Origin: Massalongia carnosa
Taxonomy: Eukaryota
Length of the DNA: 64,000 bases
Direction: 5' to 3'
Assembly: GCA_965645245.1 (NCBI GenBank)
Contig: OZ287082.1
Span: 496,001-560,000 of the forward strand
How positions within the stretch are numbered: the first letter of the stretch is position 1; each line of letters begins with the position of its first letter. Shown piece by piece: positions 22,662 through 49,900 of this stretch. Both the position numbers and the translations under genes were made by a program. Below the pieces are notes generated by a model. The model made no database searches and was not told the DNA's origin. It saw only the letters and a program-made list of their open reading frames with translations.

Positions 22662-23338
22662 TGTTGAATGTTCAACTTCTACCAGCATTGCCTAGCCGAT
22701 AGATTAGATAATATCAGATCTAATCTAAGCGCATAGAGGCTCGGATAAACTATTATCATCTCGCTTAGCAGAGGTGACCAAGATAAAAGGAACAGATTGC
22801 TCTGCACTCCGTAGCAACTCTGCATCCTTAACATCATGGTCATACAGGCCCCTATCTTTACATAGTCATATAGCCATAGTCATAGACCTATTCAACAGGT
22901 TATGAGCCCGGAAGGGCGCTATCGATCATACAGGAATCGAAGCAATTCTTATCCGCAGCATCACGATGCACAATCATTAGCTGAGCATCATTATCCTTTC
23001 TCGAAAAGAACTAGATGGACATGTTGCAAAGACTAAATCTCTACTTGTTTACAGACCTGAATCAGGCGGGATTCGCACCCGCAAGTCTAGCTAGTTGAAC
23101 AGCTTCGTGAAAGCACATCATGACAACCTCTCAATCAGATAGAGACGTTTAACAACAACGCCACCTGATCCAGCGTTCCCTACCTACAAAGGGTTATCAG
23201 AAAGAGCATGGAAATCATCTACATTATAAGCAGAGAGGCTCTTTGCCAGACTACAAGCATCAGAAGACATTCTCTTCATATCAGACCATCAGAATGCTCT
23301 TATGCCCGAATATCTGAGAGGCACTCCGGAGGATGACG

Positions 23339-24045
23339 TTGACCCAGAGGCAGACTCCAGTGGACCAATTCCATTGTTTGACCTCTGCTGCATCACCATC
23401 CATTTGACTTTTGACCCAGAGGCAGACTCCAGTGGACTAGCTCCAAGGTTTGACCTCTGCTGCATCATCACTCATTTGACATTGACCTAGAGACAGACTC
23501 CAGTGGACCAGTTCCAATGAGTGACCTCTGCTGCATCATTATTCATTTGACTTTGACCCAGAGACAGAACTCCAGTGGACCAGTTCCAATGAGTGACCTC
23601 TGCTGCATCATCATTCATTTGACTTTGACCCAGAGACAGAACTCCAGTAGACCAGTTCCAACGATTGACCTCTGCTGCATCATCATTCATTTGACTTTGA
23701 CCCAGGAACAGACCTTTTCACTGAGTTTTGTTCAAAAACCGCGCAGCGCGGCCTTGACCACTCTTGAAACTCTGATTTCTGCTGAATCATCAATTGACTG
23801 ACGTTGACCCAAGGGCAGACTTCAATCTGACTTTTGCTGCATCACCACTCAACTTACTTTGACCCAGAGACCGACCATCTAAACTATCTTTCAGGGTCCG
23901 ATTTCTGCTGAATCATCAAATGACTGACGTTGACCCAAGGGCAGACTTCATTCTGACTTTTGCTGCATCACCACTCAACATACTTTGATCCAGAGACAGA
24001 CTTCGGAAATTCAGTTCCAAGGTTTGATCCTTGCTGCATCATTCA
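23339..24045 (+). repeat. ~72-bp tandem array plus derived units in Copia A 5' UTR
   Basis: ttgacc(c/t)aga at 23339, 23411, 23482, 23553, 23625 and a variant at 23697, then two longer variant units. Confidence 0.9.
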
Positions 24046-24484
24046 TCAACAGACTTTCTGACTAGTCTACGCGTATACAGATGGAGTAATCAGACTTCAA
24101 TTAAGCAGAACGCCTCAATCGGGAAATTCGGAATCCGGAAAAAACCTTATTCCATTTAACAGGCCCGGCCTATTAAATGGAACGGTCGGACCGTGGTTCC
24201 GACAGCCTATCTCCACACCACCAAGTGAAAGTTTCACCATCTGAAGAGAGTTCTTTCATGAGGGTACAAGCGTTGTGGCAAAGAAAGGAACATCACAGTT
24301 TGATGACAAAGGAAAGGAAATGTTTTGTCTATAACTAGATCACATATTCCCAATCTCCTCCATTCATTCCAGTGCACATCCTACTCCTGCACCAATCTCA
24401 GAAACTTAGATACCTTTCAATCTACAGAAGTTTACTAGAGACCTCTTCTTCATCTTCATCTGACTCTCTTCATCTGACTTCATC

Positions 24485-25420
24485 ATGTCTCTTCCTGACA
24501 TCAACAGTTCTACAGAGAAGCCTCACCTTCTAGAGAACTCGGAACGCTACTCAGCATGGGCTAGTTACACCAGAGGTATTCTGCTGAAGAATAACTGTGA
24601 CACAGCCATTCTGGAAATCCAACCAGAGATCTCATTGGACTCCATCAGAGAGAGCCTCATCGTATCAGGGTTTACTCCGGCCAGTCTTACTACCAGCATC
24701 CTCGTCAAAGAACTTCGGGATGATAAGAACAGACAGAAAACCGAGATGACCAAGGCTATTGGAATCATCCATGGACTGGTTGCACCATGTCACTATAACC
24801 TCATCAATAACAAGACCGCTGCCGAGATGTGGGCCATTCTGAAGAATAGATTCCAGGACGTGGCACCAATGAGCATCACGGATGTCATCTTGAGGGTTAG
24901 TACGAAAAAGATGAGAGACTTCGACACAGTCAGTCAATACTGTTCAGAGTATGACGGTGCCTTCAATCAGATCAAGGGCATGTTGATCGAAGAGGTCAAG
25001 GTGAACGTCGACTCCATAGAGTTTGTACTTCAGGGAATGCTGCTTGGTAACTGCACAGACAAGTATGACCCGCTCATTGCACAACTCCGCAGGGACTGGA
25101 CGCACGACACCACAAACCTTTCGGAAACAACAAAAATCCTCATAGCCTATGCACGAAACCTAACTGTCAAGGCTTTTCACACTGGCGCTTCCAACAGAGG
25201 TAGAGCACCTATCGGAAGTTGCACCGTTCCAGAGTGTGTAAATAGGAACAGAACACGACATTGGCCAGATGAGTGTTTCCAGAAATTCCCCCATCTAAAA
25301 CGGGCGAGAGGAGACACGGCTGAATCAGGGAGGGTCAAGAGACAAAAGAACTCCAAGCCAGAAGTCACCACGTCAACTCCAGGCACCACAGTCACTACAA
25401 CTCCCACAGTGAGCAGTTGA
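24485..25420 (+). CDS. gag: Copia A Gag
   Basis: TAAEMWAILKNRF motif, C-x4-C-x7-H-x4-C knuckle; ends in TGA in frame with pol. Confidence 0.9.
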   Translation: MSLPDINSSTEKPHLLENSERYSAWASYTRGILLKNNCDTAILEIQPEISLDSIRESLIVSGFTPASLTTSILVKELRDDKNRQKTEMTKAIGIIHGLVAPCHYNLINNKTAAEMWAILKNRFQDVAPMSITDVILRVSTKKMRDFDTVSQYCSEYDGAFNQIKGMLIEEVKVNVDSIEFVLQGMLLGNCTDKYDPLIAQLRRDWTHDTTNLSETTKILIAYARNLTVKAFHTGASNRGRAPIGSCTVPECVNRNRTRHWPDECFQKFPHLKRARGDTAESGRVKRQKNSKPEVTTSTPGTTVTTTPTVSS

Positions 25421-28400
25421 CTCACAGTGGTCATGACTACCACTCTACAGAAGGTCATGACCATCAACCATCTCAACAGAGACACCTGGCTACTAGACAG
25501 CGCAGCGGACATGCACGTATGCAATCACAGGCCGTCGTTCATCAACTACATAACACGCTCCACAGGTCTGGCAGGATCTACATCAGATGGCACGTCTCCA
25601 GGGAGGGGAATGATCCGGAAAACGTTGGCACTACAGGACGACTCACCCTCGTCAGTGTTAATACTGAACAACGTTCTTTTCATTCCACAGTGTCCAGTGA
25701 ACCTCGTCAGTCTGGCACTACTCAACCAAAACAACATCTACTATGACAATGTTAACTGGACCCTATTCAACGGGATTAGTCAGAACATCATAGGCTATGT
25801 GCCAAGAGTCAATACAAACTTTGTACTAAAGACCTTGGACGCCCCAGACGTGGCTACACATCTTATGCAGACAGATGAGAGCACCTTTCAGTGGCCGAAC
25901 ACATCAGTCTACCACACGTCAGCCATAACAGACCTGTCAACATGGCATGCGCGTCTTGGTCATTTAAACCTGATCACCTGCCGAGCTTTTCTGAAAAGAC
26001 TCGATGTGTCGTACTCAGACAACGTGAACAAAGATTGGTACTGTTCATCCTGTGAACTCGGAAAGGCTACTAAGATATACAACCGGACACCTCAGGAGAG
26101 AGCAACAGGCATCTTTCAAAAGGTTCATTCCGATCTAGTAGGACCCATCAAACCAGCAGGATTTCTTGAAGAACAGTACTTCTTTACCTTCACCTGCGAT
26201 GCCAGCAGATACACTCATGTGTATACAGGCATCAAGAAGAGCGAATGGTTTGATCATCTGTTGACATACTACAGTCTAGCTCAGAACAAGACAGGAAAAA
26301 GCAAGCCAATAAACATCTTTCGAACTGATTTCGGCAGAGAACTTCGAAGTCTGAAATCGGATGATTGGTTCCTGAAAGAAGGGATAACGTTTGAACCCTC
26401 CGCACCGTATTCACAGGAACAAAACGGTGTGTCTGAACGAACAGGCAGAACTATCATGGACATGACTAGATGTACCATCATTGCAGGAGGCATTCCGGAC
26501 TACCTATGGACAGAGGTGGTTTTAGCTATGGTTCACACAAAAAACGTCAGACCTACAAATGCTTTATCCGGAAAGACCCCATTTGAAATTTACGAGTCAA
26601 AGTCACCTCCTCTGAATCATCTGCGAGTGTTGGGATCAACCGTGTATGTCCTCATTCATGAGGAAGAACGCAAAGGCGCCAACAGCAAATCGGCCAAATT
26701 TCTACCTCGGGCCCAACGCGGAGTCTTGTGTGGGTACGATGGATGCACAATCTATCGAGTCTTTCTGGAAAAGGACTACAGGGTCATCAGGGTCAAAGAT
26801 CTGCGCATTCACGAAGACGCCATCTCCAAAGACCAGACCAACGTTCCTACATACGAGGCCATCATGACTCCCGATACAGTCACTCCATCAAAATCAACAG
26901 TCATTTCATCCCCCACAACGATTCCAAAACGTGGACGTGGCAGACCCAGGAAGCATGCTCAGATAGAACACGCATTGTCTCTTCTATCAGACACAGCTTT
27001 AGATGAACCCAATCATACTCCTACATACGATGACATAGACACAGAGGATCCACTCGTTCTTCTTGCCAGAACCTTGGAAAAGGAAGGATCATCAGGATTG
27101 GAAGACTATGACGCACTGTCTCAACTCGACATAGCTGAACCTCAGACATACCATCAAGCTATGAAAGGTCCACATTCAGAAAGCTGGAGTCGTTCCATGG
27201 ACAATGAACACAACAGTCTTCTCGAGAACGAAACATGGACTCCTGTCAGAACCGAGGATATGGAGCCCAATCATACTGCTCTCAGTGGAAAATGGGTATA
27301 CAAACTGAAACAAGACGTCAATGGAAATATCACACGGTACAAATCCAGATGGGTGGTGAAAGGCTATCTCCAGCAGTACGGAGTAGATTTCGAACAGACC
27401 TATGCCTCCGTAGTGAAACCAATGGCCTTCCGATTATTGTTTGCCATAGCAGCTCATCATGACTTGGACATCGAACAGCTTGATGTCGTCACAGCATTCT
27501 TGTATGGGGTAATAGATCAATTGATTTACGTCCAAATGCCCAAAGGATATGAAAAAGCGGGCATGATCTGCAAACTGAACAAGGCTCTCTATGGCCTGAA
27601 ACAATCTCCACGCCTATGGTATGAAAGGCTATCCGAATTTCTACTTACCAAGCTGGGTCTGTCCAAACTTCACGCAGATCATAGTATCTTCTCCTCTTCG
27701 GCAGGAATAAGAGGTCCAATTGTTACCTCCTTCGTTGATGATCTGAACATCATAGGTCCAAAGGGATCTCCTATGATATCTGAAGTCAAGAAACAACTGA
27801 ACATTGCGTTCAAGATGGTGGACATGGGCCCAATCAGTCATTATCTAGGCCTAAAGGTAGAACGAAATCGCGATAACAGAACAATCAAACTATCTCAATC
27901 TACCTACATCGAAAAGGTCCTGGAGAAGTTTCATATGCAGAACGCGAAAACTACCACCACCCCAATGAAAGAAGGCAGTCTATTCAGAAATAAATCCCAG
28001 GCCTCAGAATCAGACATTAAACAGTATCAAGCAATCGTCGGCTCCATCATGTTTGCTATGATAGAAACAAGGCCTGACATTGCCTACGCGACCTCAGTGG
28101 TCAGCCGACATGCCAAAAATCCTGGCAAATCACACATGGAGGCAGCCAAGCAGATTCTCAGATATCTCAGTGCAACCAGAGACAGAGGCATTACCTTTGG
28201 TGGCGGAGATTTGTCTATACAGGGCTATTCCGATTCTGATTGGGCCGGTGACAAGGAAGACCGCAAGTCCACCTCCGGATACGTCTTCATGCTGAACAAT
28301 GGACCAATCAGTTGGGCCTCAAAAAGACAGAAAACCGTTGCCCTCTCATCCACAGAAGCCGAATATATGGCACTCACCTTAGCTGCTAAGGAGACCATAT

Positions 28401-28723
28401 GGATACGCTTATTGATGACAGAACTCGGCCTGATGCAGGATGATGCTACTCCGACAGTGAATGTACTTGAAAGGGAAGGCGCTATAGCATTGAAAGGTGA
28501 TAATCAGAGTGCTATAGCACTGGCCAATAATCCCGTCTTACATTCAAGGACTAAGCACATCGACATTCAGCATCACTTCATACGGAATGAGGTCACAGAG
28601 GGTCGAATAGACCTTACCTATGTTTCAACAGAACACATGGTAGCGGACGGACTGACCAAACCGCTTACCCACGTCAAATTCTTCTCCTTCATCAGACAAC
28701 TTCACATGAATTCATCTAGTTGA
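25421..28723 (+). CDS. pol: Copia A Pol (PR, IN, RT, RH), in frame with gag after a single TGA
   Basis: WLLDSAADMH, WHARLGH, QNGVSER, YGLKQSPR, FVDD, YSDSDWAG, TKHIDI; no internal stops. Confidence 0.95.
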   Translation, partial: LTVVMTTTLQKVMTINHLNRDTWLLDSAADMHVCNHRPSFINYITRSTGLAGSTSDGTSPGRGMIRKTLALQDDSPSSVLILNNVLFIPQCPVNLVSLALLNQNNIYYDNVNWTLFNGISQNIIGYVPRVNTNFVLKTLDAPDVATHLMQTDESTFQWPNTSVYHTSAITDLSTWHARLGHLNLITCRAFLKRLDVSYSDNVNKDWYCSSCELGKATKIYNRTPQERATGIFQKVHSDLVGPIKPAGFLEEQYFFTFTCDASRYTHVYTGIKKSEWFDHLLTYYSLAQNKTGKSKPINIFRTDFGRELRSLKSDDWFLKEGITFEPSAPYSQEQNGVSERTGRTIMDMTRCTIIAGGIPDYLWTEVVLAMVHTKNVRPTNALSGKTPFEIYESKSPPLNHLRVLGSTVYVLIHEEERKGANSKSAKFLPRAQRGVLCGYDGCTIYRVFLEKDYRVIRVKDLRIHEDAISKDQTNVPTYEAIMTPDTVTPSKSTVISSPTTIPKRGRGRPRKHAQIEHALSLLSDTALDEPNHTPTYDDIDTEDPLVLLARTLEKEGSSGLEDYDALSQLDIAEPQTYHQAMKGPHSESWSRSMDNEHNSLLENETWTPVRTEDMEPNHTALSGKWVYKLKQDVNGNITRYKSRWVVKGYLQQYGVDFEQTYASVVKPMAFRLLFAIAAHHDLDIEQLDVVTAFLYGVIDQLIYVQMPKGYEKAGMICKLNKALYGLKQSPRLWYERLSEFLLTKLGLSKLHADHSIFSSSAGIRGPIVTSFVDDLNIIGPKGSPMISEVKKQLNIAFKMVDMGPISHYLGLKVERNRDNRTIKLSQSTYIEKVLEKFHMQNAKTTTTPMKEGSLFRNKSQASESDIKQYQAIVGSIMFAMIETRPDIAYATSVVSRHAKNPGKSHMEAAKQILRYLSATRDRGITFGGGDLSIQGYSDSDWAGDKEDRKSTSGYVFMLNNGPISWASKRQKTVALSSTEAEYMALTLAAKETIWIRLLMTELGLMQDDATPTVNVLEREGAIALKGDNQSAIALANNPVLHSRTKHIDIQHHFIRNEVTEGRIDLTYVSTEHMVADGLTKPLTHVKFFSFIRQLHMNSSS

Positions 28724-29026
28724 GTTCACACCGCGCAGCGCGGTTTTGATCATCAGAACAAGTACTGGCAGAACTTGAGGGAGGGTGTTGAATGTTCAAC
28801 TTCTACCAGCATTGCCTAGCCGATAGATTAGATAATATCAGATCTAATCTAAGCGCATAGAGGCTCGGATAAACTATTATCATCTCGCTTAGCAGAGGTG
28901 ACCAAGATAAAAGGAACAGATTGCTCTGCACTCCGTAGCAACTCTGCATCCTTAACATCATGGTCATACAGGCCCCTATCTTTACATAGTCATATAGCCA
29001 TAGTCATAGACCTATTCAACAAAAGT

Positions 29027-33390: not shown

Positions 33391-36300
33391 TGTTGAAATA
33401 GGTATATGACTATGGCTATATGGCTATGTAATAATAAAGGTATGTATGACCGTGATATTAAGGATGAAGAGTTGCTAGGCAGCAATCTTTTCCTATTACT
33501 GGTCACCCCCTTCTAAGCGAGGTGATCTTATCTTATCATAGGACTAAGCCTAATGCGGCATCTACGGTTTCCGTAGATGATCTGTCCATCTAGGGCAGCC
33601 GTAGGTGCTATGTTCATCGTACTGATAGGTGTTCATTGTGCTGGTAGGAATTGGATATTCAACACCCCCCCTCAAGTCCTACCAGTACTTGTTTCCCTCG
33701 TGGATTCAACCGCGGTTGAACTTCTTTACCTCTCATGTCTGTTTGTCCATGTTGAGCTGTCTGATAAAGGAGAAGAACTTGACGTGCGCGAGGGTTTTTG
33801 TCAGTCCATCTGCAATCATGTCTTCGGTCGGAACATAGGTGAGGTCGATTCTTACTTCTAGCACCTCGTTCCGTATGAAGTAGTGCTGAATGTCGATATG
33901 CTTGGTCCTGGAGTGTAATACGGGGTTATTGGCCAGTGCTATGGCGCATTGATTGTCGCCTTTCAATGCAATTGTGCCTTCTCCTCTTAACACGTTTAAT
34001 GTCGGGGATCCGTCATCAGAAGTCATCAATCCGAGTTCGGTCATCAGTAAACGTAGCCATGTTGCCTCCTTTGCTGCTAGGTGAGTGCCATATACTCTGC
34101 TTCGGTTGATGACAATGTGACGGTTGTTTGTCTTTTGGAACACCAGCTTATTGGTCCATTGTTCAGCATGAACACATAACCCCAGTTGGATTTTTGCTGC
34201 TATTTGTCGAAGGTGATGTCTCTATTCTTGGTACCGCTAAGGTATCTGAGAATGTGTTTGGCCGCTTCCATATGTGTTTTGCCTGGATTCTTTGCATTTC
34301 GACTTATTACGGACGTTGCGAAAGCTATGTCTGGCCTGGTTTCTATCATTGCGAACGTGATGGATCCGACCATGGTTTGATATTGCTTTATGTCCTTGTC
34401 GGAGTCCTGAAATTCATTGATGAAGAGACAGCCTTCTCGCATGGGAGTGCTTTATGGTTTTGTTGACTCGATCTTGTTCGACTTTAAGGCCTAGATAGTA
34501 GCTGATTGGTCCCATGTCTACCATCTTGAAAGCTAGCTTGAGCTGTTTCTTGACTTCGGTGATCATCGGGGAACCCTTTGGGCCTATGATGTTCAAATCG
34601 TCAACGAAAGAGGTAACAATGTGTCCTTTTATCCCTTGAGGTGTTACGAAAATGTTATGATCTGCGTGGAGTTTCTCCAATCCTAATTTGCTCAATAGAA
34701 AAGCTGACAGTCGTTCATACCAGGGACGCGGAGACTGTTCAAACCGTACAGGGCTTTGTTCAACCTACACACCATGCCAGCTGTGTCATATCCTTTCAGC
34801 ATGTGGACATAGATGAGTTGATAATGAGACCGTTCAGAAAAGCTGTCACTATATCCAGTCGCTCGATGTGCAGATAGTGATGAGCAGCTAACGCGAATAG
34901 CAAGCGAAAAGCCATTGTTTGACCATAGATGCAAAGGTTTGATCGAAATCTACTCAGTATTGTTGGAGATATCCTTGACAACCCATCTGGCTTTAAAGTG
35001 AACGATCTTTTCATTTACGTCCCGTTTCAGCTTGAATACTCATTTGCCACTTAAGACTATATGTCCGGGTTCCATGGACTCGGTAGGTAATGTATCCCAG
35101 GTTTTATTCTCCAGCAGACTTTTGATCTCATCCATTACCCAGACTGACTCCATTCGTTTGCGTATTTGGAGTTCATTGCTTGATGATATGTTGAGTCGTA
35201 CGTGGGTAGATCGGTCCCATCTTTGAATGTGGCGTCTTCATGAATCCGTAAGTCCTTGACCCTGATGACCTTGTAGTCTTTTTCCATAAAGACGCGATAG
35301 ATGGTGCTTCTGTCATATCCACACAGGATTCCTTTCTGAGCCCTCGGAGAAAATTTAGCAGCCTTGCTGTTTATTCCTTTTCGCTCTTCTTCGTGAATTA
35401 ATGCATAGACTGTAGATCCGAGAATTGTCAGGTGATCCAGCTTAGGTGACTTCTTCTCGAAGATCTCATACGGGTTTTTACCTGCTAAGGCGTTGGTTGG
35501 TCTGACGTTCTTGGTGTGAACCATGGCTAGAACCACTTCTGCCCACAAGTAGTCTGGAATGTCTCCGGCAATGACACTGCATCTTGTCATGTCCATGATG
35601 GTTCTGCCCATTCGTTCCGCGACTCCGTTTTCATCATGAGAGTATGGAGCAGCTGTTTCAAACGTTATGCCTTGTTCCAAGGACCAAACGTCTGACTTGT
35701 GACTGCGAAGCTCCGTGCCGAAGTCAGTGCGAAAACTGCTTATGAGTTTAGCCTTTCCGGATTTGTTTTGAGCCATGCTGTAGTATGTCAACAAGTGATC
35801 AAACCATTCGCTCTTCTTGTGTCCGGTATAGACATGAGTGTATCTGCTAGCATCACAGGTGAAAGTGAAGAGGTAAAGTTCTTCAAGAAGTCCTGATGGC
35901 TTGATTAGTCCCACTAGGTCAGAGTTTATCTTTTGAAAGAGCTCTGTGGCCTTCTCTTGCCGTGTTCGGTTGTATATCTTTTTGGCTTTTCCCATTTCGC
36001 ATGCATGGCAAAACCAACCGTGGTTGATATCGTCATCGTACGTTATGTCTAGCGTTTTCAGATATTTTCGACACGTTGCTATGTTGAGATGACCAAGCCT
36101 TCCAAGCCATGTAGTGAGTTTTGATTTGACAGATAATGACGTCCAGTCCTTGATAGGTGTCCTCGTCCACTTTGCTCAAATGCATCCTCAAATCTGGAGT
36201 GTCAATGGTCGTTGGAATATTGGTTGATTTATGAGATAAGTCCGCCTTCGTTTCTAACGAGGTAGTCTTTTGTTCCTTTGCTCTTCCGGATTCGAGCGAA

Positions 36301-39237
36301 CTTCTAAGTCTTTTTAACTGTGGAAACTTCTGCAAACAGGTATCTAGCCAATGATGAGTGTTCTTTCTCTTGACACATTAAGAGAAGGTGCAGTTCCCTG
36401 ATGGGGCTCGACCTCTCGAGTCAGGTGTGCTGATATGAAGTGCCTTGGTGATTTTCATGTTGACATAATAAGCAATAATGGTCTTCATTGCTTCCGACAG
36501 GTTTGTGGTTTCGTATGTTCAATCTCGTCGAAGTTGGGCTATCAATGGGGAATAGACGTCTGGTGTTACCCAGCATCATTCATTTAAGCATAAACTCCAC
36601 GGTATGCACATCCACTTTGGCCTTGTCGTCTAGCATTCCTTTAATCTTGTTTAAAGCGCTCTCGTAATATGCACAGTATAGACTGGTCGTCTCGAAGTCG
36701 GTCATCTTCTTGGAACTAACCTTCAGAATGATGTCGCTGATGCTCATTGGTGCTATATCTTGGAATCAATCCTTCAGGATTTTCCACATTTCTGCCACAT
36801 TCTTGTTGTCGATGAGGCTGTAATGGCACTCCGCAACTAATCCGTGAATGATTCCTATAGCCTTGGTCATCTCGGCCTTCTGTCTATTTTTCTAGTCACG
36901 CAGTTCTTTTACCAAGATGCTGACTGAAAGACCTTTGGCGTCGAAGCCTGCTTGTATTAAACCTTCCTTGATGGTTTCAGCGGTGATTTCTGATCGATTC
37001 TCCAGAATGGCTCCTTCGCAGTTGTTCTTGAGCAGAATGCCATTCGTATAGCTTGCCCATGCCGAATATCTTTCGGCTTTCTCCAAAAGATGTGACGTAT
37101 CTATGATAGACATAATGGGAGAATGGGGAGCAATTGAACAAGGCGAGAAACTTAGTAGTGACTGAAAGAATGTGGATCTGTGACCTTTCTTATAGACAAG
37201 GAAAAAACAGTCCCTCCTTAGCCAGTGTCTACTCTGATGTCTCAACAGAGAAACCTGTTTGCTTAACATGCTTGTTTGCCATGATGAGAATTTCAACTTC
37301 GGCTTTTTCAAGGGTCCAATTGACCAATAGCAAATTGAGCGCAGGGTTATTCCAATTTGATTTAACCGGCCTTAGGCCGGTTAAATAATAAGAGGCAACT
37401 GCCGCACAATCTCATCTAGTGCCTTAAGGAGGCATAATTGCCAAAAAGAAAGGTCTTTGTGCCTTCGATCAATGAGTTTACTAAGCTCTTTGATGTCCGA
37501 GGGATTTTGTATTTTTTGCGTGTCCAGAACTCAACTACGGGTGAAACTGACGCTTTGATGATTTTTGAACCAATGGGGCGCTCAGGGCCAGCAATATACT
37601 TTTTTTGCCTTCGACCATCGAGCTTAGCGAGCTCTTTTGGTGTCCGAGGACTTCGGTGCCTTCGACCATCGAGCTTAGCGAGCTCTTTGGTGTCCGAGGA
37701 CTTCGGTGCCTTCGACCATCGAGCTTAGCGGGATCTTTGGTGTCCGAGGACTTTAGCGCCTTCGACCATCGAGCTTAGCAAGCTCTTTGGTGTCCGAGGA
37801 CTTGAGCGCCTTCGACCATCGAGCTTAGCAAGCTCTTTGGTGTCCGAGGACTTGGGTGCCTTCGACCATCGAGCTTAGCAGCTCTTTGGTGTCCGAGGAC
37901 TTGGGTGCCTTCGACCATCGAGCTTAGCAGCTCTTTGGTGTCCGAGGACTTGGGTGCCTTCGACCATCGAGCGTAGCAAGCTCTTCTGGTGTCCGAGGAC
38001 TTGGGTGCCTTCGACCATCGAGCGTAGCAAGCTCTTCTGGTGTCCGAGGACTTGAGTGCCTTCGACCATCGAGCGTAGCAAGCTCTTCTGGTGTCCGAGG
38101 ACTTGAGTGCCTTCGACCATCGAGCGTAGCAAGCTCTTCTGGTGTCCGAGGACTTGAGTGCCTTCGACCATCGAGCGTAGCAAGCTCTTCTGGTGTCCGA
38201 GGACTTGGGTGCCTTCGACCATCGAGCATAGCAAGCTCTTTTGGTGTCCGAGGACTTGAGTGCCTTCGACCATCGAGCATAGCAAGCTCTTCTGGTGTCC
38301 GAGGACTTGGGTGCCTTCGACCATCGAGCATAGCAAGCTCTTTTGGTGTCCGAGGGCTTGAGTGCCTTCGACCATCGGGCTAAGCAAGCTCTTTGGTGTC
38401 CGAAGACTTGAGTGCCTTCGACCATCGAGCTTAGCAAGCTCTTTGGTGTCCGAGGACTTGAGTGCCTTCGACCATCGAGCTTAGCAAGCTCTTTGGTGTC
38501 CGAGGACTTGGGTGCCTTCGACCATCGAGCATTGCAAGCTCTTTTGGTGTCCGAGGACTTGAGTGCCTTCGACCATCGAGCTTAGCAAGCTCTTTGGTGT
38601 CCGAGGGCTTGAGTGCCTTCGACCATCGGGCTTAGCAAGCTCTTTGGTGTCCGAGGCCTTGATTGCCTTCGACCATCGAGCTTAGCAAGCTCTTTGGTGT
38701 CGGAGGGCTTCGGTGTAGTACGATCAATGTGTTCATGCTCTTTCTAACACGCAGTTTTTGTGCTTCTGACAAGAAATCGCTGTGTACAGAAGAGAGAACT
38801 GATTGATGTGATTTAAGGGATCGTTTCTAAAGACACAGAAAGATTTTAGTCATGTGTCTACGATTCATTGAATAGGAACGATGCTTAGCTGATTGCACTG
38901 CGATGCTGCGGATTAAAAGCTTCGATTCGTTTAAATCGATAGCACCCTTCCGGGCTCATAACCTGTTGAAATAGGTATATGACTATGGCTATATGGCTAT
39001 GTAATAATAAAGGTATGTATGACCGTGATGTTAAGGATGAAGAGTTGCTAGGCAGCAATCTTTTCCTATTACTGGTCACCCCCTTCTAAGCGAGGTGATC
39101 TTATCTTATCTTGGGACTAAGCCTAATGCGGCATCTACGGTTTCCGTAGATGATCTGTCCATCTAGGGCAGCCGTAGGTGCTATGTTCATCGTACTGATA
39201 GGTGTTCATTGTGCTGGTAGGAATTGGATATTCAACA
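33391..39237 (-). mobile_element. Ty1/Copia element B1, internally deleted and decayed
   Basis: 274-bp LTRs 33391-33664 and 38964-39237 (3 differences), TATAT TSD, PBS; fragmented gag/pol homologous to B2. Confidence 0.95.
37606..38712 (-). repeat. 49-51-bp tandem array (~22 units) in Copia B1 5' UTR
   Basis: ccttcgaccatcgagcttagcaagctctttggtgtccgaggacttgagtg units. Confidence 0.95.
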
Positions 39238-39242
39238 TATAT

Positions 39243-40030
39243 CGCTGATTCGTCGAATTGATTATTATTCAATAAACTTGGAACTTGTGATTCGTAGATG
39301 ATTGAATTTTCGTCTAGAAACTTCGCGAATTAATTCCAATCTGCTTTATTGCAATTATATTTATTCGATAATTCGGTAGCATGTGACGTCAAATTTTTGA
39401 AAGATGCGATTAGTTCAAATCGGATGACTTCATGATTTGAACCTGTGACTGCGTTTTCATCGATTGACCAATATTTAACTGCATTTTCGATTTTAGAATT
39501 TGCAAATGTTAAATCAATAACAGATGAAGAACTTCCAGAATGCGCATAGTATGTGCATAAATCAGGTGTGTTTATCAAACTACATCTATTTAATTTCAAC
39601 AATATGACTAGATTTTCTGATCTAATTGCTTGTTGGATTTTCGAATTCTACCAGTTATGATATGCATTGAAATCTCCACATATGACGAATTGATCTGTTG
39701 ATGTAGGTTGATATTTGATTAAAAGTCGATCGATCGTGTATGTTTCTCGATTACTTTGACTTTTTTCGTTATAGATATTGAAAATCTGCACTTTTCGAAC
39801 TTCATCAATTGTAATTTCAATAATTTGCATATCGGAATCGTGAATAAGATCCGTTCTAGGCGTGCATTGCAGTTTAGGATTGGATTTTGTGACAAATATA
39901 GCTACTATCGAGCTATAAATAGCTATTTTTGGCATAATACATTTAAATGACGGATGTGATATTGCTTTATGATCTCGGTTCGATGGTTCCTGAAACAAAA
40001 TAATATCAATTTGATTTGATAAAGCATATT
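39243..40030 (-). pseudogene. LINE ORF2 apurinic endonuclease domain
   Basis: IDIILFQEP, IFNIYN, GDFNAYH, VIDLTF, GSNH. Confidence 0.9.
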
Positions 40031-40669
40031 TGTCAAATATATAAGGGTCAAAATGCATAATCAGGAGAATTGGGTAGATGTTGGGTGTATTGTGGAGGAT
40101 GCAGAAAAGTGGGAATCTATCTAAGGGGGGAGGCAACGTGTTGAATATCCAATACCTACCAGCACAATGAACACCTATCAGTACGATGAACATAGCACCT
40201 ACGGCTGCCCTAGATGGACAGATCATCTACGGAAACCGTAGATGCCGCATTAGGCTTAGTCCTATGATAAGATAAGATCACCTCGCTTAGAAGGGGGTGA
40301 CCAGTAATAGGAAAAGATTGCTGCCTAGCAACTCTTCATCCTTAATATCACGGTCATACATACCTTTATTATTACATAGCCATATAGCCATAGTCATATA
40401 CTTATTTCAACAGGTTATGAGCCCGGAAGGGTGCTATCGATTTAAAACGAATCGAAGCTTTTAATCCGCAGCATCGCAGTGCAATTAGCTAAGCATCGTT
40501 CCTATTCAATGAATCGTAGACACATGACTAAAATCTTTCTGTGTCTTTAGAAACGATCCCTCATATCACATCAATCAGTTCTCTCTTCTGTACACAGCGA
40601 TTTCTTGTCAGAAGCACAAAAACTGCGTGTTAGAAAGAGCATGGACACATTGATCGTACTACACCCAAG

Positions 40670-40965
40670 CCCTCGGACACCAAAGAGCTTGCTAAGCTCG
40701 ATGGTCGAAGGCACCCAAGTCCTCGGACACCAAAGAGCTTGCTAAGCTTGATGGTCGAAGGCAATCAAGTCCTCGGACACCAAAGAGCTTGCTAAGCTCG
40801 ATGGTCGAAGGCAATCAAGTCCTCGGACACCAAAGAGCTTGCTAAGCTCGATGGTCGAAGGCAGTCAAGTCCTCGGACACCAAAGAGCTTGCTAAGCTCG
40901 ATGGTCGAAGGCACCCAAGTCCTCGGACACCAAAAGAGCTCGCTAAGCTCGATGGTCGATGGCAA
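40670..40965 (+). repeat. 50-bp tandem array (6 units) in Copia B2 5' UTR
   Basis: cctcggacacc at 40671, 40721, 40771, 40821, 40871, 40921. Confidence 0.95.
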
Positions 40966-41459
40966 AAAAGTATATTGCTGGGCCTGAGCGCCCCATTGGT
41001 TCAAATATCATCAAAGCGTCAGTTTCAACCGCGATTGAATTCTGGACACGCAAAAATACAAAATCCATCGGACATCAAAGAGCTTAGTAAACTCATTGAT
41101 CGAAGGCACAAAGACCTTTCTTTTTGGCAATTATGCCTCATTAAGGCACTAGGTGGGATTGTGCGGCAGTTGCCTCTTATTATTTAATCGGCCCAAGGCC
41201 GGTTAAATCAAATTGGAGGAACCCTGCGCTCAATTTCCTTTTGGTCAATTGGACCCTTGAAAAAGCCTAAGTTGAAATTCTCATCATGGCAAACAAGCAT
41301 GTTAAGCAAACAGGTTTCTCTGTTGAGACATCAGAGTGGACACTGGCTAAGGAGGGACAGTCTTTTCCTTGTCTATAAGAAAGGTTACAGATCCACATTC
41401 TTTCAGTCACTACTTATACAAGTTTCTCGCCTTGTTCAATTGCTCCCCATTCTCCCATT

Positions 41460-42377
41460 ATGTCTATCATAGATACGTCACATCTTTTGGAGGAGGCCGA
41501 AAGATATTCGGCATGGGCAAGCTATACGAAGGGCATTCTGCTCACGAATAACTGCGAAGGAGCCATTCTAGAGAATCAATCAGAAATCACCGCTGAAACC
41601 ATCAAGGAAGGTTTAATACAAGCAGGCTTCGACGCCAAAGGTCTTTCTGTCAGCATCTTGGTAAAAGAGCTGCGTGACGAGAAGAATAGACAGAAGGCCG
41701 AGATGACCAAGGCTATAGGAATCATTCACGGATTAGTTGCGGAGTGCCATTACAGCCTCATCGACAACAAGAATGTGGCAGAAATGTGGAAAATCCTGAA
41801 GGATAGATTCCAAGATATAGCACCAATGAGCATCAGCGACATCATTCTGAAGGTTAGTTCTAAGAAGATGACTGACTTCGAGACCACCAGCCTATACTGT
41901 GCAGAGTACGAGAGCGCTTTAAAAAAAATTAAAGGAATGCTGGACGACAAGGCCAAAGTGGATGTGCATACCGTGGAGTTCATGCTTCAGGGAATGATGC
42001 TTGGTAACACCACAGACGTCTATTCCCCATTGATAGCCCAACTTCGACGAGATTGGACACACGAAACCACAAACCTGTCGGAAGCAATGAAGACCATTGT
42101 TGCTTATTCTGTCAACATGAAAAACACCAAGGCACTTCATATCAGCACACCTGACTCGAGAGGTCGAGCCCCATTTGGGACCTGCACCTTCTCTGAATGT
42201 GTCGAGAGAAAGAACACTCGTCATTGGCCAGATAACTGTTGGCAGAAGTTTCCACAGCTAAAAAGACATAGAAGTTCGCTCGAATCCGGAAGAGCAAAGA
42301 AACAAAAGACTACCTCGTCAGAAACGAAGGCGGACTTACCTCATACATCACCAAACATTCCAACGGTGAGTAGTTGA
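41460..42377 (+). CDS. gag: Copia B2 Gag
   Basis: Homologous to Copia A Gag; TGA in frame with pol. Confidence 0.9.
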   Translation: MSIIDTSHLLEEAERYSAWASYTKGILLTNNCEGAILENQSEITAETIKEGLIQAGFDAKGLSVSILVKELRDEKNRQKAEMTKAIGIIHGLVAECHYSLIDNKNVAEMWKILKDRFQDIAPMSISDIILKVSSKKMTDFETTSLYCAEYESALKKIKGMLDDKAKVDVHTVEFMLQGMMLGNTTDVYSPLIAQLRRDWTHETTNLSEAMKTIVAYSVNMKNTKALHISTPDSRGRAPFGTCTFSECVERKNTRHWPDNCWQKFPQLKRHRSSLESGRAKKQKTTSSETKADLPHTSPNIPTVSS

Positions 42378-45300
42378 CTCACACAGGTCATGGCCACAAG
42401 ACTGCAAAAAGTCATGACCATGACGAATCTGAACAAGAACTCGTGGTTATTGGACAGCGCTGCAGATATGCACGTATGCAACCACAGATACTCGTTCACT
42501 GACTATACGAGCTACTCCACTGATCTAGCAGGGTCAACGTCCACAGGAACGTCGCCAGGAAGAGGAACCATTCATAAGACATTGATCTTGGAGGACGGCT
42601 TACCCACGTCGATACTGATTCTTAACAATGTTCTCTACATTCCTCAATGTCCGGTGAACCTTGTGAGTTTGGGAATGCTGAATCAACACGATATCTTCTA
42701 TGACAATTCAAACTGGAGACTGTTCATGGGATCCACTGCAAAAGTCATAGGGCACGTACCGAGAGTTGACAACAACTTCATGCTACAGACCGTTGACACC
42801 CCAGATATGAGGATGCATTTGAGCAAGGTGGACGAGGACACCTATCAAGGACTGGACGTCACTATCTGTCAAATATCTGTCAAATCAAAACTCACTACAT
42901 GGCATGCAAGGCTTGGTCATCTCAACATTACGACGTGTCGAAAATATTTGAAAACGCTAGACATAACGTACGATGACGATATCAACCACGGTTGGTTTTG
43001 CCATGCATGCGAAATGGGAAAAGCCAAAAAGATATACAACCGAACACAGCAAGAGAGGGCCACAGAGCTATTTCAAAAGATAAACTCTGACCTAGTGGGA
43101 CCAATCAAGCCAGCAGGACTTCTTGAAGAACTTTACTTCTTCACTTTCACCTGTGATGCTAGCAGATACACTCATGTCTATACCGGACACAAGAAGAGTG
43201 AATGGTTTGATCACTTGTTGACGTACTACAGCATGGCCCAAAACAAATCTGGAAAGGCTAAACCCATAAGCAGTTTTCGCACTGACTTCGGTACGGAGCT
43301 TCGCAGTCACAAGTCAGACGTTTGGTTCCTGGAACAAGGCATAACGTTTGAACCAGCTGCTCCATACTCTCATGATGAAAACGGAGTCGCGGAACGAATG
43401 GGCAGAACCATCATGGACATGACAAGATGCAGTGTCATTGCCGGAGACATTCCCGACTACTTGTGGGCAGAAGTTGTTCTAGCCATGGTTCACACCAAGA
43501 ACGTCAGACCAACCAACGCCTTGGCAGGTAAAACCCCGTATGAGATCTTCGAGAAGAAGTCACCTAAGCTGGATCACCTGAGAATTCTCGGATCCACAGT
43601 CTATGCGTTGATTCACGAAGAAGAGCGAAAAGGACTAAACAGCAAGGCTGCTAAATTTTCTCCGAGGGCTCAGAAAGGAATCCTGTGTGGATATGACGGA
43701 AGCACCATCTATCGCGTCTTTATGGAAAAAGACTACAAGGTCATCAGGGTCAAGGACTTACGGATTCATGAAGACGCCACATTCAAAGATGGGACCGATC
43801 TACCCACGTACGATTCCATAATGATTCGAAACGAGAAAGATACCACACTCGAAATCAGTCCCACTCCTTCAAAAGACCAACCAGAGTTGAATTCCAAGAT
43901 AAGTGAAATACCCAAACGTGGACGAGGTAGACCCAGAAAACACGCCCATGTCGCACAAGTGCTGAGTCTCCTGTCAAATGAGGCATTAAGTGAACCAGAA
44001 CACATCCCCACACTGGCAGATAGAGACGAAGAAGACCCACTCATACTTCTGGCCAAAGAACTGGAAATAGAGGGAGCAGCATACCTGAACGACTACGATG
44101 CGTTCATTCAGTCAGACACAGCTGAGCCGCAAACATATCATCAAGCAATGAACTCCAAATACGCAAACGAATGGAGTCTGGCAATGGATGAGGAGATCAA
44201 AAGTCTGCTGGAGAACAACACCTGGGATACATTATCCACCGAGTCCATGGAACCCGGACATATAGTCTTGAGTGGCAAATGGGTATTCAAGCTGAAACGG
44301 GACGTAAATGGAAAGATCGTTCGCTTTAAAGCCAGATGGGTTGTCAAAGGATATCTACAACAATACGGAGTAGATTTCGATCAAACCTTTGCATCTGTGG
44401 TCAAACCAATGGCTTTTCGCTTGCTATTCGCGTTAGCTGCCCATCACGATCTGGACATCGAGCAACTGGATATAGTGACAGCTTTTCTGAACGGTCTCAT
44501 CGATCAACTCATCTATGTCCACATGCCGAAAGGATATGACACAGCTGGCATGGTGTGCAGGCTGAATAAAGCCCTGTACGGTTTGAAACAGTCTCCGCGT
44601 CTCTGGTATGAACGACTATCAGCTTTTCTATTGAGCAAATTAGGACTGGAGAAACTCCACGCAGATCATAGCATCTTCGTCACATCTCAAGGGATAAAAG
44701 GACCCATTGTTACCTCTTTCGTTGACGATTTGAACATCATAGGCCCAAAGGGTTCCCCGATGATCACCGAAGTCAAGAAACAGCTCAAGCTAGCTTTCAA
44801 GATGGTAGACATGGGACCAATCAGCTACTATTTAGGCCTCAAAGTCGAACGAGATCGAGTCAACAAAACCATAAAGCTATCTCAACCAGCCTATATCGAG
44901 AAGGTATTGGAAAGATTCCATATGCAAACCGCAAAGACAACAAACACTCCCATGCGAGAAGGCTGTCTCTTCATCAATGAATCTCAGGCCTCCGACAAGG
45001 ACATAAAGCAATATCAAACCATGGTTGGATCCATCATGTTCGCAATGATAGAAACCAGGCCAGACATAGCTTTCGCAACGTCCGTAGTCAGTCGCCATGC
45101 AAAGAATCCAGGCAAAACACATATGGAAGCGGCCAAACACATTCTCAGATACCTTAGCGGTACCAAGAATAGAGGCATCACCTTCGGTGGGGGAGATTTA
45201 TGTATACAGGGATATTCTGACTCTGACTGGGCCGGAGATAAAGAACAGCGAAAATCCACCTCGGGTTATGTGTTCATGCTGAACAATGGACCAATAAGTT

Positions 45301-45713
45301 GGTGTTCCAAAAGACAAACGACCGTTGCATTGTCATCAACCGAAGCAGAGTATATGGCACTCACCTTAGCAGCAAAGGAGGCTACATGGCTACGTTTACT
45401 GATGACTGAACTCGGATTGATGACTTCTGATGACGGATCCCCGACAATAAACGTGTTAAGAGGGGAAGGCACAATTGCATTGAAAGGCGACAACCAAAGC
45501 GCCATAGCACTGGCCAATAATCCCGTATTACACTCCAGGACCAAGCATATCGACATTCAGCACCACTTCATACGAAACGAGGTGCTAGAAGGAAGAATCG
45601 ACCTCACCTATGTTCCGACCGAAGACATATTTGCAGATGGACTGACAAAACCCCTTACGCACGTCAAGTTCTTCTCCTTTATCAGACAGCTCAACATGGA
45701 CAAACAGATATGA
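42378..45713 (+). CDS. pol: Copia B2 Pol (PR, IN, RT, RH), in frame with gag after a single TGA
   Basis: WLLDSAADMH, WHARLGH, ENGVAER, YGLKQSPR, FVDD, YSDSDWAG; no internal stops. Confidence 0.95.
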   Translation, partial: LTQVMATRLQKVMTMTNLNKNSWLLDSAADMHVCNHRYSFTDYTSYSTDLAGSTSTGTSPGRGTIHKTLILEDGLPTSILILNNVLYIPQCPVNLVSLGMLNQHDIFYDNSNWRLFMGSTAKVIGHVPRVDNNFMLQTVDTPDMRMHLSKVDEDTYQGLDVTICQISVKSKLTTWHARLGHLNITTCRKYLKTLDITYDDDINHGWFCHACEMGKAKKIYNRTQQERATELFQKINSDLVGPIKPAGLLEELYFFTFTCDASRYTHVYTGHKKSEWFDHLLTYYSMAQNKSGKAKPISSFRTDFGTELRSHKSDVWFLEQGITFEPAAPYSHDENGVAERMGRTIMDMTRCSVIAGDIPDYLWAEVVLAMVHTKNVRPTNALAGKTPYEIFEKKSPKLDHLRILGSTVYALIHEEERKGLNSKAAKFSPRAQKGILCGYDGSTIYRVFMEKDYKVIRVKDLRIHEDATFKDGTDLPTYDSIMIRNEKDTTLEISPTPSKDQPELNSKISEIPKRGRGRPRKHAHVAQVLSLLSNEALSEPEHIPTLADRDEEDPLILLAKELEIEGAAYLNDYDAFIQSDTAEPQTYHQAMNSKYANEWSLAMDEEIKSLLENNTWDTLSTESMEPGHIVLSGKWVFKLKRDVNGKIVRFKARWVVKGYLQQYGVDFDQTFASVVKPMAFRLLFALAAHHDLDIEQLDIVTAFLNGLIDQLIYVHMPKGYDTAGMVCRLNKALYGLKQSPRLWYERLSAFLLSKLGLEKLHADHSIFVTSQGIKGPIVTSFVDDLNIIGPKGSPMITEVKKQLKLAFKMVDMGPISYYLGLKVERDRVNKTIKLSQPAYIEKVLERFHMQTAKTTNTPMREGCLFINESQASDKDIKQYQTMVGSIMFAMIETRPDIAFATSVVSRHAKNPGKTHMEAAKHILRYLSGTKNRGITFGGGDLCIQGYSDSDWAGDKEQRKSTSGYVFMLNNGPISWCSKRQTTVALSSTEAEYMALTLAAKEATWLRLLMTELGLMTSDDGSPTINVLRGEGTIALKGDNQSAIALANNPVLHSRTKHIDIQHHFIRNEVLEGRIDLTYVPTEDIFADGLTKPLTHVKFFSFIRQLNMDKQI

Positions 45714-46329
45714 GAGGTTAAGAAGTTCAATCACGGTTGAATCTACGATGGAAACAAGTACTGGTAGGACTTGAGGGGGGGTGTTGAATATCCAATTCCT
45801 ACCAGCACAATGAACACCTATCAGTTCAATGAACATAGCACCTACGGCTGCCCTAGATTGATAGATCATCTACGGAAACCGTAGATGCCGCATTAGGCTT
45901 AGTCCCAAGATAAGATAAGATCACCTCGCTTAGAAGGGTGACCAGTAATAGGAAAAGATTGCTGCATAGCAACTCTTCATCCTTAACATCACGGTCATAC
46001 ATACCTTTATTATTACATAGCCATATAGCCATAGTCATATACCTATTTCAACACAACGTGTCTAGTCGGGCCGGAATAACCCTTCGGATATATCATCCTG
46101 AGTTACCACTGATATTTAGGATTAGTTATCCTATAATTTGACAATATTCCAAATACGAAATCACTGCATTCGTTGACTTTGCACAATTATGTTGAATAAA
46201 TTTAACATTTTGTGTATTTTCGATTTTTGTCAACGAATGTTGTCCTGCCATTACAAAGCGGCTAGTTCGTCAGTCGATTTTCGAAAATTTAACGATATAA
46301 CCGTCCTCAGCGATCACATTCAACTATTT

Positions 46330-46995: not shown

Positions 46996-49900
46996 TCACT
47001 CCAGGCCCAATGCATTCCTAAATGCAATGAACTTGTCCTTGGATAAGGCCTTGGTAAGACCATCTGCTACTTGATCCTCAGTGGGGACGTAGCGAAATTC
47101 CACCGTTTTGTCCTCTATTTTCTCCCGTTGGTAATGCCATTGAATGTCGATATGCTTACTCCGTGCATGGGCCTGGGGATTCTTGGCCAAAGCAACTGCT
47201 CCTTGATTGTCGCAGTGAATGATGACGGCTCCAAAAGAAAACGAGGTGGGGAGACAAGCTAGGGCGATGTTGGCACTATGAGTCATTTGCTGCATGGAGT
47301 GGGTACCTGGGGCCTCTGGAGGGTTGATTTGGTCCAGAAGGCTAGATAGCCACACAGCTTCCTTGGTGGCTTGTGTCTGGCTCATGTACTCAGCCTCACA
47401 GGAGGACAGTGCTACCGTTGGTTGACGTTTTGAAGACCAACTAATTGCATTACTGCCGACGTTGAAGACATATCCAGAAGTGGATCTCCGGGTGTCGTGA
47501 TCTCCGGCCTAGTCTGCATCCGTGTACCCGTTTAAAGGCATCAAGGGACCTTTAAATGTTAGCTGTAAGGTCAGCGTACCTTTGATGTACCTAAAAATGC
47601 GCTTAACGGCCTTCCAGTGCGTCTCAGTGGGATTTGAGGAATAACGGCTGACCACCGAGACAGCGTAGGCAAGGTCTGGCCTAGTCCCAAGCATAGCGTA
47701 CATTAGGGATCCCACTGCGGACTGATACCGCAGGCGTGAGTCCTCTGTAGCTTGGTAGCCTTCTGGTGCTGCCTCAAGGCGTCCTTCCACGGGGGTGGCC
47801 ACTGGATTCGTCTCCCACATACCGTGGTCACGGAGCACCTTCTCCAGGTATGCTTGTTGGCTCAAGCGCAGGATTCGGTTGGGGCGGTCCCGAGTGATGG
47901 AGATTCCCAGATAATAGCTGATGGGTCCAAGGTCGACCATTTGAAAACGTTCGCTGAGGGCCTGTTTGATGCATCGGATTTCTGACGGGGAGGAGCCAGT
48001 GATCTTTAGACCGTCCACGTAAATAGAGACGATGACCCTTTCCTTTGCAAATATGCTGAAGTCGGCGTTGATCATGTGAAAGCCTAAGGACTTCAGGAAG
48101 ATAGTCAAAGTCTCGTACCAAATTCGTGGGGACTGCTTGAGGCCGTAGAGTGCTTTGTTTAGCTTGCACACTCGTTTGGTTCCGTTCTCGAAGCCTTCTG
48201 GCTGCTCCACGTAGATGTCTTCTTCAACGCAGTCATAGAGGAAAGCCGTTTTGACGTCCATGGCGTGAATCTCCCAGTCGTTGGCGGCGGCGATTGCGAA
48301 CAGGGCCCTATAGCTCATTGGCTTAACCACGGAGGCGAACGTTTCGTTGAAGTCGATGCCCTCTCGTTGCTCCAAGCCTCTGACCACCCATCGTGCCTTG
48401 TGCCGGAGAACCTCACCCATGGCTCCACGTTTCAGGCGGTAGACCCATTTGGCACGGAGCGCTCGTCGGTTTGGAGGGATAAACACCAGCTTGTAGGTAT
48501 TATTGGCGTTAACTGAGTCGATCTCGTCCTGCATGCCCTTTCTCCATTCCCGGTGATCTCGGCACCGTACGGCCTGCTTGTAGGTTTTCGGCTCGTAGGG
48601 CTCTATGCTTGCAGCGTGGGCGAGGAGAGCGAGCATGGCCAGGGGGTCGGGGGAGCATTCTCGTAGCTCTGGATGCCTAGCAAGCACCTCCGATTGGACT
48701 TTTTGCCGGATAGGCTTTGGAGGAGGAGGAGGTGGTGTAGGCATGGGTGATGGGACTTCGTCGGTCGGTACTTCAATAGTGTCTAGGAATTCGAGAGCGG
48801 CGGCCTCATCAGATGGGGAGGTCTTAAGCCTTTTTGTAGGGGGAGCGGCGTCTTCAATTTCGATGATTTGAGGCGGCGGGGGCGGGGCGGGGGCAGGGGG
48901 ATCTGAAGGGGCCTGAGACAGCGACGCGGGAAGGTTGTCTATCCATTTAACGTTGGAGAACCGCATCACTACTCCCTTGGGCGTGATCATTCGATAAATA
49001 TGATCGCCTTCGTAGCCAACTAATCTGCACTTGATGGCGCGATCCTGGAATTTCTTCCAACCGGTATTAGGCTTTCTCACTTGTGCGTAGCCGGTTTGCC
49101 CTACAATGCGTAAATGTCCTAGCTTGGGGGAACTGCCTTTGTGAGATCCGTAAGGGGTGATGTTTCTTCCTGCCGTGGGTTGTCGATTTCGCAGGTAATT
49201 GGCTGTTAGTACCAATTAGGCCCACCACTTTTCATCTAGCCCCGCGTCCACTCGCATTGTGCTAGCCATCTTGTGCAACATTTTACCCAGGCGCTCTGCT
49301 TTGCCGTTTTGCTCCGGGATTCCTGGCACAGTCGGCTCCCACCCGATGCCGTTTTCGAGTCGGAACTTGTCAAATTCAACGGAGTTGTACTCACCCCCGT
49401 TGTCCGATCTCAAACGTTTGATGCATTTGTCTCCGTACTCATTTTGTTTTTTGTAGTTGAGGAAAGCTTGAAACACCCCGTCCTTGGAGCGGAGCAGAGA
49501 CACGTGAGACCGTCTGTCGAAGTCACATTGAAAGGTGACCAAGTATTTGGCGCCGTTGGCTGCTTCTTTGAAGTGGCCCTGAACGTCGCTGTGGATGAGA
49601 TCCAGTGGGTGCTTACCTGGCTCCATGGGGGCCTTATGAGGTTCCGCTGTGATTTGGGCAACGGCGCAGGGGCCGCAGGAGTCTTCGGGAGGCGGCTTGC
49701 TGAGGTCCATGCCTTGCGACATGCTGGCGAGCTTGACCACGTTTTGCTCTCCTAAGTGGCCGAGACGGGCATGCCACATCTTCAATGCCTCACTGTTGAC
49801 AGCAGCCAGGGCGAGGGAGGATTGGGGAACGTTGAACAAATCTAAAATGTACAGGTTATTTGCTTGACGACGTGCCATGATGCCGTAGCTGCCGATCTCG

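Follow-up and report, generated by a model that had tools for sequence, protein, structure and literature searches.

Can the RNA of a long terminal repeat (LTR) retrotransposon be spliced and still find its way back into the genome as DNA? The question is raised by a pair of related elements in a 64,000-nucleotide (nt) stretch of the Massalongia carnosa assembly GCA_965645245.1 (contig OZ287082.1, positions 496,001 to 560,000 of the forward strand), hereinafter the window, in whose own numbering all coordinates are given. B2 is an intact element with open gag and pol, and B1 is a defective copy of the same family lacking a 423-nt segment whose ends have the form of an intron in B2; a third element, Copia A, represents a sister family (Table 1). 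The protease (PR), integrase (IN), reverse transcriptase (RT), RNase H (RH) domain order, the TG...CA LTRs, and the 5-base-pair (bp) target-site duplications (TSDs; in A and B2) identify the A/B elements as Ty1/copia retrotransposons, with termini reading TGTTGAA...TTCAACA uniformly in all the LTRs of A, B1, and B2. We propose that B1 goes back to a B-family RNA that was spliced before being reverse-transcribed, a reading to which, on the evidence of sequence comparisons, we give a probability of about 0.72.

Aligned to B2 (94.9% identity over the aligned bases), B1 lacks exactly 141 codons in phase 0. Its minus strand reads ...ATATTCCAACG/ACCATTGACACTCC... (the slash marking the junction here and below), and B2 reads ...CATTCCAACG/GTGAGTAGTTGAC...(423 nt)...CATGCTACAG/ACCGTTGACACCCC..., with the codons ACG/GTG and CAG/ACC at the edges of the gap. 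The placement is ambiguous by one nucleotide (G), and comparison with contigs from public sequencing runs gives an equal placement with GT..AG ends (cut +1). In B2 the segment opens with a consensus donor and closes with a consensus acceptor, and near its end the hexamer GTTGAC (42765-42770) contains a TTGAC that matches the branch-like motif YTRAY, its A lying 20 nt upstream of the following exon-like sequence. The missing segment comprises the last three gag codons (VSS), the UGA stop codon, two predicted hairpins, and pol residues 1-137. Of the Pfam domains in B2 pol, the protease barrel Pol_BBD (residues 23-104) falls wholly inside the gap, and gag_pre-integrs (155-215), followed by SH3_retrovirus (393-469) and RVT_2 (627-860), starts beyond it; the protease is thus the one Pfam domain taken out by the gap, which we count in favor of a spliced intron. 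The virtual spliced product is an in-frame Gag-IN-RT-RH polyprotein without protease, and B1 itself retains both LTRs, a primer-binding-site-like sequence, and a polypurine tract. A first-pass annotation of the window had claimed this exact absence with its donor, branch-like motif, and acceptor, as well as the inclusion of the gag stop, a readthrough stem, and the whole protease, and the alignment, Pfam assignments, and folding predictions agree with it on these points. It had further named Gag-IN-RT-RH as the spliced product: this holds for the virtual junction, and B1's own open reading frame (ORF) is frameshifted by an 11-nt deletion. Since the deletion bears every sequence hallmark of a spliced-out intron, we favor a spliced RNA as the ancestor of B1. 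A second GTGAGT inside the inferred intron, used with the same CAG, would give a 126-nt in-frame intron (42663-42788); the corresponding site in A reads GTCAGT.

Table 1. Coordinates of the elements, the junction, the putative intron, and the associated predicted features in the window.
Feature	Coordinates	Strand	Details
B1 exon-exon-like junction	36200..36215	-	CCAACG/ACCATTGACA, between 36210 and 36209
B1 local ORF, 114 aa	36033..36377	-	crosses the junction ...STNIPT/TIDTPDLRMHL...; 11-nt deletion then shifts the frame
Putative B2 intron, 423 nt	42366..42788	+	donor GTGAGT; branch-like TTGAC 42766-42770; acceptor CAG (end CTACAG)
Stretch of A homologous to the putative B2 intron, 423 nt	25409..25831	+	GTGAGC...AAG (ends ...TAAAG); UGA 25418-25420
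Predicted hairpin 1 (B2)	42366..42383	+	GUGAGU(AGUUG)ACUCAC; donor is the 5' arm, UGA in loop and 3' arm
Predicted hairpin 2 (B2), candidate readthrough stimulator	42387..42424	+	8-9 nt past the UGA
B1, defective copia copy	33391..39237	-	LTRs 33391-33664 and 38964-39237, 271/274 identical
B2, intact copia element	40139..46053	+	LTRs 40139-40412 and 45782-46053, 95.6% identity; TSD CAACG
B2 gag, 305 aa	41460..42377	+	UGA end 42375-42377; equal-length Gag proteins P0002, P0159
B2 pol, PR-IN-RT-RH, 1111 aa	42378..45713	+	same frame as gag
Copia A, sister family	22662..29021	+	LTRs 236/236 identical; TSD AAAGT; gag-UGA-pol layout; ~73% identity

The position of the putative intron is shared with known plant copia introns (PMC5580714), and this too we count for the spliced-RNA reading. 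In plant Ty1/copia elements a GU-AG intron begins where gag ends, that of EVD taking out the whole protease, and barley BARE1 has a shorter intron directly after gag (PMC5580714, PMC3735527); the protease-spanning geometry in plant Ty1/copia was set out by Oberlin et al. (PMC5580714). The B2 segment resembles the EVD/EVADE shGAG intron in starting at the end of gag, spanning the protease, and having GU-AG ends, and resembles those of EVD and BARE1 in much exceeding typical host introns and in its U1-like donor. However, the plant elements have a single ORF, and their splicing shifts the frame to produce a Gag-only mRNA, coupled to premature polyadenylation (PMC5580714, PMC3735527), whereas in B2 gag already ends at a UGA inside the putative intron, and the frame shift of the plant shGAG is absent: with 141 codons removed the frame is kept, and the ORF runs on into integrase. 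The full-length spliced form also apparently became DNA in the B family, and B1 would be the type of copy that BARE1 appears to avoid. The description of this locus in the first-pass annotation as the opposite of EVADE goes too far: the intron geometry is exactly that of plant Ty1/copia (PMC5580714), and the reading-frame outcome alone sets the two apart. A copia intron that removes the protease is already known from plants (EVD, BARE1); new here are the fungal host, the in-frame junction, and the stop codon inside the putative intron. The genomic RNA of Drosophila copia is likewise spliced, via a ~3 kb intron that removes the POL region to yield a 2-kb Gag mRNA, as summarized in PMC5580714 and PMC3735527, and it differs in forming no in-frame Gag-integrase fusion. 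The literature outside subscription journals yielded no report of a spliced genomic copia copy or of splicing in a fungal copia element.

The closest parallel to B1 as a genomic copy comes from human LINE-1, whose spliced integrated retrotransposed elements (SpIREs) are genomic copies precisely lacking an intron-like segment of their own family, i.e., fossils of spliced RNA (PMC5860796). B1 would be their LTR-element counterpart, as it lacks a segment that carries a consensus donor and acceptor in intact relatives. The LINE-1 copies are defective. SpIREs, however, derive from a non-LTR element by target-primed reverse transcription, whereas B1 has both LTRs, so that a spliced RNA would have needed packaging and both strand transfers. 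We envisage that the host spliceosome probably cut out a 423-nt GU-AG intron extending from three codons before the gag UGA to the protease/integrase boundary. The new copy would then have come from full-length RNA in its spliced form or from a recombinant complementary DNA (cDNA) made from co-packaged spliced and unspliced RNAs; since B1 is full length, some spliced template would have to have reached the 3' LTR, or recombination occurred. Reverse transcription and integration would have been performed by proteins supplied in trans, resulting in a protease-less copy that forms part of a defective multi-copy deletion-derivative subfamily.

ORFs of the B1 type also occur on three further large contigs (P0146, P0152, and P0153 in the protein collection); they bear B1's 11-nt frameshift and/or its 105-amino-acid (aa) deletion and are 94.5-97.4% identical to the B1 ORF and 93-98% identical to each other. 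By these similarities the B1 type is a multi-copy deletion derivative, which presumably moved in trans or was duplicated. The three ORFs start downstream of the junction and so do not cover the gap site. Four public runs of uncertain kind were compared through their contigs, and in two of them, X4 and X5, which belong to different studies, the 423-nt joint itself is present, at depths of 732.6 and 102.3, respectively. The corresponding depths are 771.2 and 67.9 for a 318-nt joint, 911.8 and 132.2 for the 11-nt deletion, and 444.2 and 53.1 for intron-bearing contigs; the similar depths of the B1-type markers fit a single set of copies carrying all of them. In run X1, 3037 short contigs with very high summed depth and many odd short-sided joints cover 41000-45780 of the window, among which several B1-type markers (318-nt and 68-nt joints) are seen and the 423-nt joint is not. 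Scans for relatives farther afield returned little: an alignment of the A and B2 protease-integrase region found just two loci at 23% identity in metagenomes, which are uninformative, and a donor/stop motif gave 10 chance matches in bacterial genome bins and none in viral contigs, occurring within the window in A and B2 only.

Several observations weigh against a spliced RNA as the source of B1. It is a deletion-prone copy: besides small indels and frameshifts it has gaps of 11, 315, 68, and about 51-59 nt, so that there were five deletions of which one could come to resemble an intron, and its flanks, CCTAT and TATAT, agree at just three of five positions as an imperfect TSD. The joints in X4 and X5 may be the B1 locus itself or its duplicates, and neither X1, which has most of the element's words, nor X6 showed the 423-nt joint, contigs being able to prove presence and not absence. 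The protein searches for further precisely spliced copies returned no independent one: none of the three matches to the B1 junction ORF, all longer than it, spans the junction, and proteins close to it in length did not turn up; none of ten Gag-cluster members retrieved has the junction, their sequences ending in PTVSS or breaking off earlier; and no Gag-integrase fusion occurs among 27 long integrase homologues. Eleven of these 27 lack a Pfam protease label, of which ten contain protease sequence and one begins at the protease/integrase border. As evidence against independent spliced copies, these negative protein searches are weak. The claim that B1 is a copy of a spliced RNA stands as the best reading of the sequence hallmarks, with the qualification that, given its frameshifts, four further deletions, and imperfect TSD, B1 is no clean product.

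An ordinary deletion with accidental GT..AG ends, arising at the DNA level or by template switching of the reverse transcriptase, would be in keeping with the other four deletions and many small indels of B1. A predicted hairpin, at which pausing or jumping is possible, has its base right at the 5' edge of the gap, and the junction shows 1 nt of microhomology (G). Against this stands the rarity of such ends: among 2,000,000 simulated random deletions of 40-1000 nt within B2, scored for splice-like ends, 0.49% could be placed as GT..AG and a fraction of 1.55e-5 as GTRAGT..YAG, i.e., ~8e-5 for the latter over five deletions. The 5.4-kb B2 interior has only two GTRAGT sites, one of which is used by the gap, and clean consensus splice sites are missing from the ends of all four remaining gaps in B1. 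We considered a microhomology-mediated deletion at the 6-nt GTTGAC repeat found near both ends of the gap, the natural substrate for such an event, and rejected it as the junction ignores the repeat. Together, the simulation, the scarcity of GTRAGT sites, the lack of consensus in the other gaps, and the unused repeat make a chance deletion an unlikely origin of the gap, and its coincidence in position with known copia introns (PMC5580714) also counts against this account, which we regard as quite unlikely. The 51-nt gap at 45186 was likewise considered as a second intron and set aside: GT..AG can be placed there, but off-consensus, and in fact 8 other nt have taken the place of 59 nt. A different path to the same sequence would be loss after integration, whereby the cDNA of a spliced RNA recombined with a B copy that was already in place with its intron, and converted it, B1 itself never having transposed in spliced form. 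Recombination with the cDNA of a spliced RNA is the classical model of intron loss in genes. The imperfect TSD of B1 and its LTRs, which are 98-99% identical to the B2 5' LTR as against ~95% in the interior, hint at recombination or conversion. However, the same spliced RNA is still required and only the last step differs, and the gap and the remaining B1-type markers occur at equal depth, which fits one founder under either model; we hold this path to be very improbable. 

In both A and B2, gag and pol are open and share a frame, with a single UGA between them. The donor is predicted to lie in a hairpin around this stop, GUGAGU pairing with ACUCAC over 6 bp in B2 and 5 bp in A, and a second stem is predicted 8-9 nt (B2) or 6 nt (A) downstream of the UGA; folding z-scores range from -2.8 to -3.8 across the A and B2 hairpins. 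A search of B2 against Rfam gave no credible family. All 142 representative Gag homologues (down to ~25% identity) are at most 377 aa long, and four of the related proteins (P0001, P0100, P0106, and P0121) have W at the position of B2's UGA, with L or Q codons next, which fits UGA-to-UGG mutants of a stop in the UGA-C context seen in the A/B2 lineage. The conserved stop, the W replacements, the UGA-C context, and the predicted downstream stem point to UGA readthrough as the way in which this lineage most likely makes its Pol under normal conditions. This layout recalls readthrough of the murine leukemia virus (MuLV) type, where an in-frame gag/pol stop is followed by a ~8 nt spacer and a stable structure (PMC2194720, as summarized there); A and B2 share the in-frame stop, spacer, and predicted structure and differ in using UGA, not UAG, and in that their hairpins are predictions only. 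It is also similar, by description only, to Tca2 of Candida albicans, a Ty1/copia element with a gag-UGA-pol arrangement, short spacer, and predicted downstream structure, the bypass of whose stop had not been settled (PMC2194720). Forbes et al. found that the Tca2 stop-region sequence gave no readthrough in Saccharomyces cerevisiae and offered two possible explanations, one being that the UGA is inefficiently spliced out, which they thought unlikely (PMC2194720). The region tested was ~300 nt around the stop (PMC2194720); an acceptor placed as in B2, ~410 nt past the stop, would fall outside it.

It is conceivable that splicing is programmed: the UGA stop would give Gag, readthrough Gag-PR-Pol, and splicing a protease-less Gag-IN-RT-RH, with the donor hairpin setting their ratio and B1 being a by-product of a selected expression strategy. 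The first-pass annotation had advanced such a coupled three-product switch, together with the retention in A of GTGAGC...AG at the same spacing and the sequestration of the donor in the stop hairpin. The latter two points are sound, the second as a prediction: A is collinear with B2 without gaps across the intron, and at 73% nucleotide identity keeps the GT and AG in the same places, the AG even though the acceptor codon changes from CAG (Q) in B2 to AAG (K) in A. Further in its favor are the in-frame 141-codon length that follows domain borders, the selection described on plant copia introns around the protease (PMC5580714), and the insufficiency of the stop-proximal Tca2 sequence for readthrough in yeast, with splicing named as possible (PMC2194720). 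The diverged Gag tail also has a conserved island, VSS*LT (the asterisk being the stop), in which five of six codons are identical between A and B2 against a synonymous baseline of 49%; however, the binomial probability is ~0.1, not significant on its own, and the same bases double as stop context and hairpin. Similarly, an in-frame length has a one-in-three chance, A and B2 being non-independent in this respect. The A acceptor, AAG, is weaker than the CAG of B2, no YTRAY motif is found in the last 60 nt of the A stretch, and the donor stem of A has a C.A mismatch with no compensatory change. Among 26 Gag relatives retrieved, 21 have a recognizable C-terminus, and at the donor codon (-3) only two of these (TVSS and TVNS, the endings of the P0007 and P0015 families) have Val, encoded by GTN and the only residue able to supply the donor GT there, as against Ile in 12 and others in seven, all judged by eye. 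Neither Copia C nor Copia D, both also in the window, shows a donor where gag meets the protease, and we know of no role for a polyprotein incapable of self-cleavage. These findings tell against the switch, which we therefore consider unlikely. About as doubtful is the fuller proposal that splicing serves this clade of fungal gag-UGA-pol copia elements as a programmed second bypass of the gag stop, wherein the donor-hiding hairpin would set the frequency of excision and the Gag-IN-RT-RH product would be packaged via its Gag part and cleaved in trans by protease from the rarer readthrough product. We think it likelier that the splice proposed for B1 yields a minor or accidental isoform than that it serves as a third, programmed route of expression. 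Nothing yet shows it to be purposeful, and a single lineage of fossils supplies the case for a spliced RNA.

If the splice is real, a plant-like protease-spanning intron would exist in a fungal copia element, with the gag stop inside it and an in-frame junction, offering a concrete candidate for the "stop-codon splicing" that was raised and then set aside for Tca2. It would also mean that a spliced LTR-retrotransposon RNA is able to complete packaging, reverse transcription, and integration, and that a protease-less copy can found a non-autonomous subfamily. Were the programmed version true, it might answer how the stop is bypassed in Tca2-like elements and would extend the protease-centered copia intron from plants to fungi with its outcome inverted. 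Should the splice be accidental, B1 would be a tidy but ordinary fossil.

The window as a whole is transposon-rich, with a HET-domain ORF, Tc1/mariner and PIF-type transposases, a gypsy element, and at least five copia copies. The host of the B family is a filamentous ascomycete, probably lichen-forming; one public run containing the copia element is labeled a lichen metagenome. With its identical LTRs, perfect 5-bp duplication, and open gag and pol, Copia A looks like a very recent, possibly active insertion. The B2 LTRs differ by 10 mismatches and a 2-nt indel despite its open ORFs and perfect duplication, and the B1 LTRs are closer to the B2 5' LTR than are B2's own LTRs to each other, and recombination or conversion between LTRs is possible. 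The two elements are arranged head-to-head with their 5' LTRs ~900 nt apart (38964-40412), and both have tandem repeats of 50-51 nt in the leader between the 5' LTR and gag (37556-38745 in B1 and 40616-40984 in B2), those of B1 being ~800 nt longer. The gypsy-type element (8092-11940, plus strand) has one frame with three in-frame stops (TAG 8890-92, TGA 9814-16, and TAA 11323-25), and in Copia C a single in-frame TAA (49216-49218, minus strand) splits two long ORFs; these stops may reflect decay by mutations like those of repeat-induced point mutation (RIP) and not recoding. Copia D (51418-56399), of a lineage distinct from A and B, encodes a 1334-aa gag-pol ORF without an internal stop and has LTR segments that are 97% identical.

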